Shown here in pieces: positions 351 to 43,269 of a stretch of 64,000 bases of DNA (positions are counted from its first letter, which is position 1; every line of letters begins with the position of its first letter). Source of the stretch: an uncultured delta proteobacterium (GTDB lineage: Bacteria; Desulfobacterota; Binatia; UBA9968); the NCBI GenBank assembly GCA_963804165.1, contig CAWDPO010000017.1, positions 394,178-458,177 on the forward strand, in the 5' to 3' direction. The notes beneath the pieces were generated by a model, which saw only the letters and a list, made by a program, of their open reading frames with translations, was not told the origin of the DNA and made no database searches. The translations under genes and the position numbers were made by a program.

Positions 351-1565
351 GTGAATACCACCAACGACATACTTAAAGGCGTGCGCATTGTCGCCTTCAC
401 CACCGGTTACGCCGGTCCGTACGCCGGCAGGTTGCTCGCCGGTTATGGCGCGGAAGTGATCAAGATCGAGTCCAAGAAGGGCGGTCTCGATACCTTTCGT
501 CATTACGGCCAGCACAAAGACATCGATGCGGCGCCGCGCTTTATCGAGTGCAATCTCGGTGTGCGCTCAATGGCGATCAATCTAAAGCATCCCACCGGCG
601 CGCGGCTGATTCGCGAGCTGGCCGGAAAATCAGACGGGGTCTTGCAGAATTTCCGTCCTAGGGTCTTGGATAAATTGGGTTTAAGCGACGACGAGTTGAG
701 AAAATCTAATGCAAAGCTTGTGATCGTGAAACTTCCCGGCTTTGGCAGCGAGGGGCCGAAGAGCAGCTACGGAACCTGGGGTTTTAATCTCACGGCGTTT
801 TCCGGCATGACCTATCTGTGGAATCATCCGGAACAGGATCGTCCCATCGGCAGCCAAGGCGTCTATCCGGATCACTTGGGTTTCGTCATGGCGCCGACAT
901 TGATCGTCGCTGCGCTGCTCAATAGCCGTCGCACGGGCAAAGGCGTGACCATCGATCTGGCGCAGATCGAAGGGACCGCGGCCGTTCTGGGCACGACCTA
1001 TCTGGAGACGTCGGTCAACGGCGATGATCCGCAACCCAAAGGCAATCACTACGCCGTTGCTGCGCCGCATGGTTGTTACCGCTGCCAGGGTGAAGACCGC
1101 TGGTGTGTAATCTCGGTCCGCGGCGACGACGAGTGGCGTGGATTCTGCCGCGTTATCGGACGCGGCGAGTTGGTGAGCGACGCGCGTTTTGTGAGTTTAG
1201 CGGCGCGGCTGGAGCAGCGCGCGGCGCTTGACGCAATCGTCGAGGAGTGGACTCGAGCGCGTCCCGCGGAAGAGGTGATGACGAAGCTGCAAGGGGCGGG
1301 CGTGCCGGCCGGTGTGGTGCAGACCGGTGCCGATCTATCAAAAGATGCGCAACTGCGCCACAGAAACTATTTCGCCCCATTCGCCGATTCGCTGATCGGA
1401 CCCTTTGAAATTCCACGCAGCGGTTTCTTGTTTCGCGGCGCGCAGGAAGAACCTTTGCGCTTGCCCAACCGCTTTGGCGCTGACAACGACGCGATTCTCA
1501 GTGAGCTACTCGGCTATGACCGAGCGACGATCGAGCAATGGCGCCAGGAAGAGATCTTGACATAA
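351..1565 (+). CDS. CaiB/BaiF family III CoA transferase
   Basis: LKGVRIV...AGPYAGRLLAGYGAEVIKIES, NFRP, PHGCYRC motifs; 404 aa. Confidence 0.9.
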   Translation: MNTTNDILKGVRIVAFTTGYAGPYAGRLLAGYGAEVIKIESKKGGLDTFRHYGQHKDIDAAPRFIECNLGVRSMAINLKHPTGARLIRELAGKSDGVLQNFRPRVLDKLGLSDDELRKSNAKLVIVKLPGFGSEGPKSSYGTWGFNLTAFSGMTYLWNHPEQDRPIGSQGVYPDHLGFVMAPTLIVAALLNSRRTGKGVTIDLAQIEGTAAVLGTTYLETSVNGDDPQPKGNHYAVAAPHGCYRCQGEDRWCVISVRGDDEWRGFCRVIGRGELVSDARFVSLAARLEQRAALDAIVEEWTRARPAEEVMTKLQGAGVPAGVVQTGADLSKDAQLRHRNYFAPFADSLIGPFEIPRSGFLFRGAQEEPLRLPNRFGADNDAILSELLGYDRATIEQWRQEEILT

Positions 1566-1668
1566 CGTCTCGGTTTACGCCTGGAAGCGTTCACGAAACC
1601 ATTCAAAGCGTCGCGAGTTAACGGAAAGTCGGCTGACGTTTCTTCACGTTTAGGAGATTGCATTGAAC

Positions 1669-1742
1669 TGTCATCCTGAGGCGAAGCCGAAGGATCTCGA
1701 CTTTGAAACGAGTTTGAAATGCGAGATGCTTCGCTTTGCTCA
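1669..1742. repeat. REP-like bipartite palindrome whose right arm is interrupted by the IS
   Basis: Left arm TGTCATCCTGAGGCGAAGCCGAAGGATCTC (1669-1698); right arm GAGATGCTTCGCTTTGCTCA (1723-1742) continues as GCATGACA at 3060-3067. Confidence 0.85.
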
Positions 1743-1761
1743 TCTATGAAAGCTTTGTCAA

Positions 1762-1948
1762 GGTGGCTGATATTCACATATCGATATTCCGTCAAAGGTT
1801 TTGAACAAACTTACTCATATCGTCCGTAGTCCTGCGCACCCGATGTTATCGGACTCATGCTATTCGCCGTCTTAAGCGGCAGAGGAAAATGCCACAGGGC
1901 TGTCGCAATCAGCATTCGAGCCTTGTTTGGCTCATGAGCGAAACGCGC
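1762..1948 (-). ncRNA. Putative bridge/seek RNA region of the IS1111 element
   Basis: ~190 nt non-coding region downstream of the transposase; CGTTTCGCTCA and ATGCTGA segments matching the target flank a GAGCC/GGCTC hairpin. Confidence 0.7.
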
Positions 1949-2989
1949 TTAGCCCCGCGTGGACGACATCGGTTCCCGATAGGACTCTCCCTTCTTAAGC
2001 ATCCAGAAAGCCGCCTCGGCCAAGTGTCGGGCGACCGCCACAATCGCTTTGCCATGACCGCGCCTGGCTTTGACGTTTTCATACAGCCGGCTGATATGTC
2101 GGTACTGGCAGCGCTCGCGGTTGAGCACCGCGCTGTTGGCCGCCTCGACGAAGGCCCACTTGAGATACAGGTTCACATCTTTGCGCACCCGCCCGTAGCG
2201 GATCTTGCCGCCACTGGAGTTCTCTCGCGGTACCAGTCCCGCATAGCTCGCCAACTGTTCGGCTCGGCCAAAGCGTTCGATGGTGCCGATCTCAGTCCAA
2301 ATCACCACCGCCAGCATTTCACCGACCCCCGGCTCACTCTTCAAGTAGGTCGTCTGGGGGCAGGGAGCAAACGCTGCTTGCATCTTTGCTTCGATGACCT
2401 TGAGATTGGCTTGTACATGATCGAGTTCGTCAAGCATCAACTTCAGCGCTTCGCCGGTATGAGGGGGCAGTTTAGCCAGCAGTCCTTCGAGGATCTGTCG
2501 TCCCTGCTTGCCAAAGGCGTCGCTGATTCCGTCCACCTTAAAGCCGTACTTACTTATAGTGGCGTGAATCCGATTCTTGAGTTGGGTGCGTTGATTGCTC
2601 AACACCATGCGGGTGCGCGGCAACTCCCGAGCGTCGCGCACCGCGGACGGGGGAATCCGGACCGTCGGCAGGGTTCCTGCCCTCTGCAAACGGTTCATTC
2701 CTTTGGCATCCAACTTATCGCTCTTGTTGACGCTGCCGATCATCAGCTTGGCCAAGCGTGCATTGACCAGTTGCGGACTCCCTTTTCCAACTTCGATCTC
2801 ATCGACTACCCAGTACCAGTTCCCAACCGTCTCCACCGCCACGGGAGTTCCGGGATTCCACTTCTTGGTAAAGTTCTCGATGGTTCCACCAACGTGCGCG
2901 AGTTTGCACTCATAGAGCTTATCGCCCTTGTCGTTTTCCACTCGCGCCCAGCTGTAGTGCTTGTGAACATCCAATGCAATGTATTCCAT
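1949..2989 (-). CDS. IS110 family DEDD transposase/recombinase
   Basis: IALDVHK, VAVET, KSDKLDA, RFGRAEQLASYAGLVPRENSSGG, KAIVAVARHL motifs; intact 346 aa. Confidence 0.95.
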   Translation of the reverse strand: MEYIALDVHKHYSWARVENDKGDKLYECKLAHVGGTIENFTKKWNPGTPVAVETVGNWYWVVDEIEVGKGSPQLVNARLAKLMIGSVNKSDKLDAKGMNRLQRAGTLPTVRIPPSAVRDARELPRTRMVLSNQRTQLKNRIHATISKYGFKVDGISDAFGKQGRQILEGLLAKLPPHTGEALKLMLDELDHVQANLKVIEAKMQAAFAPCPQTTYLKSEPGVGEMLAVVIWTEIGTIERFGRAEQLASYAGLVPRENSSGGKIRYGRVRKDVNLYLKWAFVEAANSAVLNRERCQYRHISRLYENVKARRGHGKAIVAVARHLAEAAFWMLKKGESYREPMSSTRG

Positions 2990-3180
2990 TTGCGATTTCC
3001 TCCTTCACCCGCCAGTCTAGTCACTGACGCTGTGGATTCCATCGCTTTCATATTAATCAGCATGACACTTAAGTGTTTGGGCGGTTTGCGACCTGTGTAG
3101 GATCGGCGAGAGAGTGGATTTGGAGAAAGTTAGCCAGACCTCTCATAGTTTCTGTCGCGCGTTCGGTCGAGGGGGAAAAT

Positions 3181-4161
3181 ATGTTTGGAGTGTCCGCTTC
3201 CCTGGCGCTTTTCCTCGTATTCGTCGGTCAAGCTGAGATCACCTACGCGCAAGAGCCGGTTAAACTCCGTGCCAGCGTGGTGGCAAAAACGTTCGGCTTC
3301 GGCCCGCTCTGGGTGGCATCGAAGCAGGGATTTTTCAGCCAGCAAAAGCTCGACGTAGAAATTCTTCTGATTCGCGGGTCCGATGTATCCACTCAAGCAT
3401 TAGCCGGCGGTTCGTTGCAAATTTCCGGCGCGTCTGCCGATGCGCCGATCGCCGCCTTTGATCGCGGCCTGGACATGGTGATTATCGGCGGCATCATCAA
3501 TGGGCTGAGCCAATCGATCATGGCGGGCAAGAATTATAGGACCTACGAAGACTTGCGCGGCGCTACGCTCGGTGCCAATAGCCTCACCGCCGGGACGGCA
3601 TTTGCTTTCCGGCGCGTGCTCAAAGCGAAGGGACTGGAATATCCGCGCGATTACAAACTGATTAACGTGGGCGGAACGCCGCAAGCGCTCGCGGCGTTAG
3701 CTTCGGGCCAAATCGCCGCAGCGCCGCTGTCGTTACCCGTAAATTACGTGGCCGAGGAGCAAGGATTCAATACCATCGGTCGCTTCATCGACGTTATCCC
3801 GCACTATCAGCTCTCGGTGTACTCGGTGCTTCGGCCCTGGGCGGAAAAAAATCGTGCGGTTGTCGTTCGCTTCATGAAGTCGATCGCACTGGCGGCGCGC
3901 TGGATTTACGCGAATAAGGATGCCGCGACGGATTTGCTCGCCAAGGAGATGGGCCTCAAGCGCGAATACGCGCGCAAAGGTTGGGAGTTTTACACCGAGA
4001 AGGGTCTTTGGAATCCGGTCGGTGACGTGACCCTCGACGGACTCGGCATCGTCGCACAAATCTACGCCGAACAGAATCAGTTGAAGACGCCGCCCAATCC
4101 GGCCAAGTTCGTCGACCAAAGTTATCTGCGTGCTGCGCTAAAAGAGATGGATGGAAGGTAG
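3181..4161 (+). CDS. ABC substrate-binding protein, SsuA/THI5 (NMT1) family
   Basis: Signal peptide; LWVASKQGFF...DLRGATLG; C-terminal FVDQSYL. Confidence 0.85.
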   Translation: MFGVSASLALFLVFVGQAEITYAQEPVKLRASVVAKTFGFGPLWVASKQGFFSQQKLDVEILLIRGSDVSTQALAGGSLQISGASADAPIAAFDRGLDMVIIGGIINGLSQSIMAGKNYRTYEDLRGATLGANSLTAGTAFAFRRVLKAKGLEYPRDYKLINVGGTPQALAALASGQIAAAPLSLPVNYVAEEQGFNTIGRFIDVIPHYQLSVYSVLRPWAEKNRAVVVRFMKSIALAARWIYANKDAATDLLAKEMGLKREYARKGWEFYTEKGLWNPVGDVTLDGLGIVAQIYAEQNQLKTPPNPAKFVDQSYLRAALKEMDGR

Positions 4162-16477: not shown

Positions 16478-16643
16478 GAGACTGTTCTCAATGTCATTCT
16501 GAGGAGTGGAGCGACGAAGAATCTGCTTTTGGTTTTGGGGTTTCGGACACCATGCCGATTCAACCCGAATACGGAAGAAAAAGCAGATCCTTCGCTAGGC
16601 TCAGGATGACGCAGGGCAAATTTTTGGATTGAGACACAGTCTC
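16478..16643. mobile_element. MITE-like element carrying a REP-like palindrome
   Basis: Terminal IRs GAGACTGTTCTCAA and TTGAGACACAGTCTC enclose TGTCATTCTGAG...CTCAGGATGAC (16492-16610). Confidence 0.65.
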
Positions 16644-43156: not shown

Positions 43157-43269
43157 TGTCATCCTGAGCCAGGGGCGAAGGATCTGCTTTCGTTCAGTGG
43201 CCGCGACGCTTGGATCGCGTGCAGGCTTGTAAAAGCAGATTCTTCGTCGCGGCGCTCCTCAGAATGACA
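43157..43269. repeat. REP-like bipartite palindrome (family of 1669 and 16492)
   Basis: TGTCATCCTGAGCC...AAGGATCTGCTTT and AAAGCAGATTCTTCG...CTCAGAATGACA. Confidence 0.8.

Follow-up and report, generated by a model that had tools for sequence, protein, structure and literature searches.

The window, a stretch of 64,000 nucleotides (nt) from an uncultured deltaproteobacterium (lineage Desulfobacterota; Binatia; UBA9968; assembly GCA_963804165.1, contig CAWDPO010000017.1, positions 394,178 to 458,177), very probably carries at positions 1743-3059, on the minus strand, an insertion sequence (IS) of the IS110 superfamily with IS1111-type architecture, encoding a DEDD transposase and a bridge (seek) RNA that overlaps the last codons of the transposase gene. 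This assignment draws on the sequence itself, on covariation within the RNA structure, on covariation between putative guides and flanking DNA, and on the positions of the genomic copies, all of which were observed directly. The earlier note on this DNA had proposed an RNA-guided recombinase programmed for a host repeat, and the comparative evidence supports this: the guide columns of the RNA track the flanks in about 40 homologous loci, and the copies sit at guide-matching sites. Within the window alone the guide-target match is only moderately unlikely; the decisive evidence is comparative and comes from copies and homologues.

The Element, Its Copies and the Host Repeat

The ends of the element were set by the limits of similarity in an alignment of the 10 copies found in its own genome (7.50 Mb, 46 contigs, 55.8% G+C). 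The element and its site comprise the following features.

1743 to 3059, minus strand: whole insertion sequence, 1317 bp, with one TGA counted to the left end (10-copy alignment)
3060 to 3066, minus strand: left half of the target, GTCATGC, the start of the host repeat, conserved to the left of all four family A copies
1670 to 1742, minus strand: remainder of the palindromic repeat of the host (TGA, then GCAAAGCGAAGCATCT, etc.), with the opposite arm at 1670-1697 (genomic matches)
3044 to 3052, minus strand: left subterminal inverted repeat TATGAAAGC, the reverse complement of 1745-1753
1745 to 1753, minus strand: right subterminal inverted repeat GCTTTCATA, the counterpart of 3044-3052

At the left junction GTCATGC (3066-3060) is followed by TGA (3059-3057) and TTAATATGAAAGC, and at the right junction GCTTTCATAGA is followed by TGA (1742-1740) and GCAAAGCG (1739-1732). 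Terminal extensions of 7 bp on the left and 2 bp on the right lie outside the 9-bp inverted repeats. The same end rule is kept in homologues (left, TGA+N5-6+TGAAAG; right, CTTTCA+N4 followed by TG), where the inverted-repeat runs span 7-16 bp, the range that defines the IS1111 group being 7-17 bp. The non-coding DNA is distributed unevenly, with 206 nt after the stop codon (1948-1743) versus 70 nt before the start codon (3059-2990).

The 10 copies fall into two families. Family A comprises four copies with 97-100% identity (the window copy and those on contigs C36, C41 and C20), and its sister, family B, comprises six full copies with 80-82% identity, plus one fragment. Copies at sites unrelated to the guide, an outcome raised in the earlier note, were looked for: each of the four family A copies has ATGC on one side and TGA(G/A)C on the other, in one orientation relative to the repeat arm, and the six family B copies lie at ATTC-TGAGC (the hyphen marks the junction). 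There is no target-site duplication, and empty arms carry a single TGA. The window copy occupies an intergenic region between two plus-strand open reading frames (ORFs), 351-1565 (404 amino acids, aa) and 3073-4161 (362 aa), both of which are left uninterrupted, the insertion being restricted to the repeat.

This repeat is abundant in the genome, with about 30 further matches to 1670-1742 and 133 arms genome-wide that carry the motif GTCATNCTGAN..GAAGNATYT. Uninterrupted copies read GTCATNC-TGA-G with a single TGA, and the two N positions, 15-25 nt apart, co-vary (C:G 57, T:A 57, G:C 17), as expected of a hairpin arm. The genome has 17 empty arms of the G type, which suit family A, and 58 of the T type, which suit family B; for the C-type arms there is no matching resident element. 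A Nitrospirota homologue (L033) has ATCC both in its guide and in its flank. In a same-genus genome (L115), the orthologous intergenic region, flanked by the same two genes, contains an unbroken repeat and no IS, which supports the reconstructed empty site. Two more repeat copies are present in the window, at 16493-16610 and 43158-43268, each combining a T-type arm with a C-type arm; no element occupies the T-type arms, which are candidate family B sites.

Covariation between Target Guides and Flanking DNA

Two segments of the predicted RNA would read the target, one for each DNA strand.

1935 to 1943, minus strand: right target guide TTTCGCTCA, the complement of the core and right flank in the top strand (covariation)
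1908 to 1915, minus strand: left target guide ATGC+TGA(+T), which reads like the top strand of the left flank and core (covariation)

The three segments named in the earlier note and the target that it reconstructed lie where they were placed, and its match counts are correct: ATGCTGA at 1915-1909 matches the reconstructed target 7/7, and CGTTTCGCTCA at 1945-1935 matches the bottom strand 9/11. Nine nucleotides of the latter 11-mer stand as the variable guide, but its first two do not. CG at 1945-1944 is part of a CGCG/UGCG stem that is invariant in 75/75 distinct homologues whatever the target, so that the variable right guide is reduced to TTTCGCTCA (1943-1935), with 7/9 matches at the window site.

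Homologues were collected in a scan of one genome per species, which yielded 80 loci with transposases 40-84% identical to the window protein (tblastn), in metagenome-assembled genomes labelled Binatia, Nitrospirota, Rokuibacteriota, Acidobacteriota, Chloroflexota, Planctomycetota and others. Fifty-eight regions around the stop codon were aligned with MAFFT (alignment A1). The element ends in each locus were defined from the inverted repeats, independently of the RNA, and the 49 A1 loci with ends provided 43 left and 39 right flanks. The automatic inverted-repeat search mis-set the ends of L059 and some other loci, which were dropped from the counts; inspected by eye, L059 has canonical ends and guide matches of 7/7 and 9/9.

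Across these loci, RNA columns 74-77 are identical to flank positions -4 to -1 in 84-95% of the 43 left flanks and columns 42-39 show the complement of positions +3 to +6 in 72-51% of the 39 right flanks, with permutation z-scores of 7.9-10.2 and 4.5-6.0, respectively, which overstate significance since related loci are not independent. Taken per locus, with the best of three registers on both sides, the 8 nt before the TGA of the RNA match the left flank at a mean of 4.74/8 positions compared to 2.06 in 1764 mismatched pairs, and the right guide matches positions +3 to +11 at a mean of 6.03/9 compared to 3.58 in 1468 mismatched pairs. The loci represent 33 different target types on the left and 35 on the right, and such a diagonal pattern, maintained over so many target types, would be hard to explain otherwise. 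Guide/target covariation across homologous ISs, which the earlier note had suggested as a check, is therefore present in both sets of flanks. The shared core is generally TG; the third base, A, always comes from the left end of the element and is A in the target in 21/39 loci. Within the genome, site discrimination by family A seems to depend mainly on ATGC+TGAGC.

Some flanks in the homologous set have features of their own. In three Acidobacteria loci (L080, L084 and L088) the expected core position at the right junction has AG instead of TG, while relatives have TG before the same flank (ACGTGTC). The left flanks of L039, L043, L046 and L049, from Rokuibacteriota and other genomes, resemble a tRNA T-arm (GGTTCGAATCC), and in L049 both flanks form an inverted repeat of the T-arm-like GGTTCGAATCC. 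ARAGORN detected no tRNA gene in five homologous loci with T-arm-like left flanks.

A Conserved RNA Structure Downstream of the Gene for the Transposase

The long non-coding end of the element contains a conserved structured RNA, as judged by comparative sequence analysis, and its transcript is predicted to comprise the following parts.

1819 to 1967, minus strand: predicted bridge/seek RNA, about 149 nt, from P0 strand GTCGTCC (1967-1961) to GGACGAT (1825-1819) (covariance model R1)
1951 to 1958, minus strand: 5' strand of stem P1, formed by the last codons and the first stop-codon base, pairing with 1894-1901 (RNAalifold)
1944 to 1947, minus strand: invariant CGCG, pairing with UGCG at 1904-1907 and closing the target loop (100% paired in 75 distinct sequences)
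1917 to 1934, minus strand: hairpin P2 between the target guides (GAGCC 1933-1929, AAACAA 1928-1923, GGCTC 1922-1918)
1866 to 1880, minus strand: hairpin P3 (GCCG cttaaga CGGC) between the donor guides (96.9% paired; 3/4 pairs change on both sides)
1840 to 1852, minus strand: tentative hairpin P4 (CCGAT aac ATCGG), read directly (57.6% paired, partly via register shifts)

The consensus fold of alignment A1 by RNAalifold consists of P1, the CGCG/UGCG stem, P2 (between the guides) and P3. Covariance model R1, which was built on the 58 sequences from these stems plus the tentative P0 and P4, gave 84 matches (75 distinct) in 90 sources, each directly 3' of a homologous transposase gene, and in its own genome it matched exactly the 10 element copies. 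The match in the window covers 1811-1974 with 133 bits, and the copies on C36 and C41 score 139.5-140 bits. In the 75 distinct rows, 82.3% of cells are paired compared to 67.8% in shuffles, and the covariation score is 0.383 versus 0.135, a value reached by 0/500 shuffles; the alignment fitted to R1 favours the structure, while RNAalifold on the MAFFT alignment gave P1-P3 independently. When partners are slid by 1-3 columns, pairing falls to 31-39% of cells. P1, P2 and P3 are paired in 95-97% of cells, and 12/13 pairs have changed on both sides; this includes P1, with 96.8% of cells paired and both-side changes in all 5 pairs, and P2, with 95.3% and 4/4. The tentative P0 has a 7/7 complement in 33/74 homologues, the window copy included, with a mean complement of 6.22 compared to 5.47 for shuffled downstream sequence. 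P0 and P4 are probable in this copy and not universal.

According to this model, the RNA would start about 17 nt inside the ORF and extend about 130 nt past the stop codon. The earlier note had placed the RNA just after the transposase stop codon, which holds for the downstream non-coding region but not for the predicted start within the coding sequence. R1 gave no convincing match to a haloarchaeal homologue or to an unannotated homologue on a Klebsiella plasmid. In the haloarchaeal plasmid homologue (33% identity), the only match is weak (12.7 bits, L113:534-690) and lies upstream of the transposase gene.

Contigs of two public DNA runs join position 1762 or 1769 straight to 1838, skipping 1763-1837 or 1770-1837, and represent variants without the spacer between the RNA and a putative -35 box near the right end (described below). 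The spacer 1763-1837 is wholly different between families A and B, which suggests that it is dispensable.

Donor Guides

The earlier note could not confidently identify the donor-binding loop. Both donor guides can now be located, as AATAGATGAG and CATTTTCCTCT: P1 is followed by CATTTTCCTCT (1891-1881), P3 (1880-1866) and GAATAG[C]ATGAGT (1865-1853).

1881 to 1891, minus strand: probable right donor guide CATTTTCCTCT, 7/11 complementary to the left end TGATTAATATG (counted by eye)
1854 to 1864, minus strand: left donor guide AATAG[C]ATGAG, which without C1859 equals the right end ATAGA plus TG plus the flank AG

The left donor segment AATAGATGAG has the same sense as the right end of the element. 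Positions -5 to -1 of this guide match the right end of the same element 5/5 in 34/39 loci and 4/5 in the other 5, across 7 right-end types. The right donor guide, in the standard register, matches the left end of its own element at 6-7/11 positions in 26/43 homologues, always including the core, and is the weakest of the four guides. Evidence for the donor guides is weaker than that for the target guides because guides and ends are inherited together. A map of column covariation on the donor side was dominated by shared ancestry and was set aside, so only per-locus counts were used. The accessible text of Durrant et al. (PMC11208160) describes, for many IS1111 elements, a multi-loop that contains the donor-binding bases and, for IS621, a discontiguous right-donor pairing, and the arrangement found here corresponds to these descriptions.

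The Transposase and Its Family

The protein partner of the predicted RNA would be encoded immediately upstream of it.

1949 to 2989, minus strand: transposase gene, 346 aa, with DEDD/RuvC-like and Transposase_20 domains (ORF, Pfam, NCBIfam)

The gene ends with the stop codon TAA at 1951-1949. Its product matches PF01548 (E 3.7e-11) and PF02371 (E 3.3e-21), both above the Pfam cut-offs, and the NCBIfam model NF033542 'IS110 family RNA-guided transposase' with 230 bits compared to a cut-off of 140. The acidic residues D7, E53, D91 and D94 are conserved in 64-65/65 homologues; S259 is Ser in 61/65 and G260 is Gly in 63/65. S259 is aligned with the Ser of the IS621 ESG motif (chain 8wt6_A), the N-terminal correspondence with IS621 being a weak alignment, and residues 251-260 form the GL-P----SG motif (G251-L-V-P-R-E-N-S-S259-G260). 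The element belongs to the IS110 superfamily. With a length of 346 aa, the protein lies within the usual 330-350 aa of IS1111 transposases, and the description 'compact' in the earlier note is not upheld.

Membership in the IS1111 group is probable, based on architecture (layout, inverted repeats, left extension and guide order). Both Siddiquee et al. (PMC11187229) and Durrant et al. (PMC11208160) describe this kind of layout for IS1111 elements. The guide order is of the IS1111 type, with the segment complementary to the top strand located 5' of that complementary to the bottom strand. By sequence the clade is distant from the studied elements, yet its predicted function and architecture match an IS1111-type seekRNA/bridge RNA system. 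Transposases of families A and B are identical at 301-304/346 residues (87-88%). Truncated transposase ORFs occur in two copies, at C20:85263-86682 (family A, 129 aa) and C30:69026-70354 (family B, 222 aa); the C20 copy has several one-base insertions, some in homopolymer runs, which may be decay or assembly error.

Sister Families as a Natural Retargeting Pair

Families A and B are, on sequence comparison, a natural retargeting pair, in which a single base of the left guide differs together with the matching position of the repeat arm. Guide and left flank both read ATGC in all four family A copies and ATTC in all six family B copies, and the left flanks read GTCATGC in family A versus GTCATTC in family B, whose sites are ATTC-TGAGC. 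The segment before P2 is CGCGGCTCA in family B versus TTTCGCTCA in family A, and the right flanks are mostly GCCGCAGG or GCCGAAGG in family B versus GCAAAGCG or GCAATGCG in family A. The arms of P2 change in a compensatory manner between the two families, from GAGCC/GGCTC (family A) to GGGTC/GACCC (family B).

Handshake-Like Extensions of the Guides

A further signal is found at the 3' ends of the guides that pair with the bottom strand. The two bases after TG in the left donor guide match the left end of the same element in 0/36 dinucleotides, compared to 19/39 dinucleotides and 53/78 single bases for the right flank of the target. When flanks were permuted within the same donor-guide type, 11.3 dinucleotide matches were obtained, and 0/10000 permutations reached the observed values. 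In the window copy the bases after TG are AG, as in TGAGC. On the target side, the left target guide runs on as TGA(T/A), with a fourth base identical to that of the left end in 37/43 loci.

These patterns may mean that the 3' extensions of the bottom-strand guides read the other DNA partner, either as a mirror of the IS621 handshake or as junction recognition for excision; combined with the single-base guide difference by which the two sister elements divide the variants of one host repeat, they would constitute an IS1111-type rule set not in print in the searchable papers, a proposal to which we give slightly less than even credence. The handshake guides of IS621 adjoin the top-strand guides; once strands have been exchanged they pair with non-cognate DNA, and they tune insertion versus excision, as described in the accessible text of PMC11208158 and PMC13626964. 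In the searchable literature on 'handshake guide' and IS1111, supplements aside, the handshake is attributed only to IS621 and other IS110 elements.

Alternative Explanations

Several observations weigh against the assignment or parts of it, beginning with the non-independence of related loci mentioned above. On the target side, 8 loci without TG at the expected right junction were excluded from the right-side counts, the right guide matches the four family A sites at just 6-7/9 positions (by eye), and it fits T-type arms about equally well as G-type arms. Non-repeat sites with a 10/11 right-side match are unoccupied, suggesting that transposition is rare or that the repeat adds something more, e.g. 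structure. On the donor side, the right donor guide is weak in the clade of the window element (7/11, with the register shifted by one base). With respect to the RNA, P0 and P4 are paired in just 61% and 58% of cells, and a single-sequence fold of 1742-1951 is no better than shuffles (z 0.18), which is why the comparative structure was relied upon. An Rfam scan of 1400-3300 with E up to 10 gave only a chance snoRNA match and no family, R1 did not recognise the non-coding region of the classical IS1111 member IS4321 (best 5 bits), and among the listed public runs holding the stretch none is on record as RNA. The identity of just 23% to the transposases of IS4321 and IS5075 and an extra C inside the left donor guide of the window copy also belong here, and each of them leads to a distinct alternative.

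The alternative that survives best accepts the RNA system as real and questions the window copy. C1859 would split the left donor guide and make the RNA of this copy a poor binder of the right end, leaving an element that is not autonomous and moves only with RNA from a sister copy, or else the base would be an assembly error; we regard this as a genuine possibility, if the less favoured one. The extra C is present in the window copy alone and absent from the other three family A and all six family B copies, in a guide that is otherwise the best conserved of the four; R1 scores the window copy lower than those on C36 and C41, and two other copies, with ORFs of 129 and 222 aa, are clearly decayed. 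One contig of run X2 and three of run X4 (public DNA runs) also lack C1859; these contigs cannot be tied to the window locus or assigned to any copy and hence give no proof that this locus is without the base. On the other hand, the window copy has a transposase ORF of full length, with 2/346 residues different from two other copies, and one bulged base may be tolerated. The term 'intact' used in the earlier note is therefore apt for the ORF but not for the donor guide with its 1-nt insertion.

Another alternative concerns the label rather than the function: the element may lie outside IS1111 proper, in an IS110-group branch with a downstream non-coding region. The low identity to IS4321 and IS5075 is in line with this, as are the best plasmid match (33% identical) and the failure of R1 on the IS4321 non-coding region, and a 3' non-coding region is mentioned for some IS110-family groups in the accessible text of Siddiquee et al. 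(PMC11187229). Arguing for IS1111 are the subterminal inverted repeats (9 bp here, up to 16 in homologues), the 7-bp left extension, the protein of 346 aa, the GL-P----SG motif and the order of the guides. In addition, the alignment with IS4321 covers residues 1-337 (23% identity, E 3e-11; IS5075 likewise 23%), whereas that with IS621 covers the C-terminal domain alone (E 2.6e-10). A position outside IS1111 is thus considered unlikely, and the IS1111-type assignment is preferred.

That the matches between non-coding region and flanks arose by chance, or are DNA-level protein-binding sites instead of RNA, is very improbable and already largely refuted by the comparative data: among 5000 mononucleotide shuffles of the 206-nt non-coding region a 7-nt exact match in the 24-nt target is not rare (875) and transcript evidence is absent from the public runs, but a 9/11 bottom-strand match occurred in 88 and both matches together in just 17, identical alignment columns track 33-35 different targets, and P1-P3 pairing survives changes on both sides, which a double-stranded protein-binding site would not need.

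A Proposed Model of RNA-Guided Insertion

In the proposed mechanism, transcription, binding of the RNA by the protein, chemistry and activity of the window copy are the predicted components. P1 and the invariant CGCG/UGCG stem would close the target loop, in which TTTCGCTCA would pair with the top strand of TGA+GCAAAG and, after P2, ATGC+TGA with the bottom strand of the left flank and core. The donor guides would lie in a multi-branch loop, with CATTTTCCTCT weakly complementary to the left end and AATAGATGAG in the same sense as the right end. The element may excise as a circle, by analogy with IS621 and ISEc11, and the joined ends of the circle would create a promoter driving both transposase and RNA.

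1756 to 1761, minus strand: TTGACA, putative -35 box (read and counted by hand)

TTGACA (1761-1756) and TAATAT (3055-3050) would be separated by a 17-nt spacer and could act as a promoter only when the ends are joined in the circle, a proposal modelled on ISEc11 and IS621. A scan of 1600-3200 found no sigma-70-like promoter or intrinsic terminator in the integrated element, and contigs of four public DNA runs contained none bridging the empty site or the circle junction. The RNA-protein complex would then, again by analogy, recombine the circle junction with the host site at the shared TG(A) core without target duplication. The target would be one arm of the palindromic repeat, with family A reading the G-type (ATGC-TGAGC) and family B the T-type (ATTC-TGAGC).

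Comparison with Known Systems and Implications

The closest parallels are found in IS1111 elements with described seekRNAs, in which the same order of matches and the same downstream location are reported in the accessible text of Siddiquee et al. (2024, PMC11187229). ISPa11 and ISEc11, as described there, share with the present element the subterminal inverted repeats, the 7-bp left extension, the absence of target duplication and the circle-junction promoter (here predicted from sequence), and ISPa11 likewise targets a host REP. Their seekRNA has a long form of 154-172 nt, compared to the approximately 149 nt predicted here, and the natural redirection between ISEc11 and ISXne4 parallels that between families A and B (PMC11187229). 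The comparison with ISPa11 and ISEc11 was made by description, the present element being known from sequence; in contrast to these elements, the redirected families here share one genome and are a single left-guide base apart.

IS621 is similar to the system predicted here in that a single RNA provides both a target loop and a donor loop, in each of which one guide per DNA strand surrounds a short shared core, and also in having a DEDD plus Ser active site, a REP target, a weak discontiguous right-donor pairing and handshake guides, i.e. guide bases that pair with non-cognate DNA, according to the accessible text of Durrant et al. (2024, PMC11208160) and Hiraizumi et al. (2024, PMC11208158). 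It differs in several respects. The RNA lies after the gene here and before it in IS621, and the guide order is reversed; the donor guides here would occupy a multi-branch loop, compared to a simple internal loop in IS621; the core reads TG(A) rather than CT; only the C-terminal protein domain aligns; and the handshake-like bases here prolong the bottom-strand guides, on the right side of the core, whereas in IS621 they are associated with the top-strand guides, to the left. IS4321 and IS5075 resemble the window element in their transposases, alignable over residues 1-337, and in IS1111 architecture (per literature), and differ from it in the low sequence identity, the different target and the lack of an R1 match. 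The two elements target the inverted repeats of Tn21-type transposons.

RNA-guided IS110/IS1111 recombinases are under development as programmable genome-insertion tools, and almost all mechanistic work on them concerns IS621 and a few relatives. Since the basic biology is already known, the present finding adds a case and some detail, possibly a new detail of the guide rules, rather than a new principle; the element is a well-supported new example, on sequence evidence, of an already known type of RNA-guided recombinase. Its value lies in the readability of all four guides from sequence in a clade distant from the studied elements. The pair of families A and B in one genome offers a ready-made specificity experiment, and, on the host side, a single family of palindromic repeats appears as a landing pad divided between sister elements.

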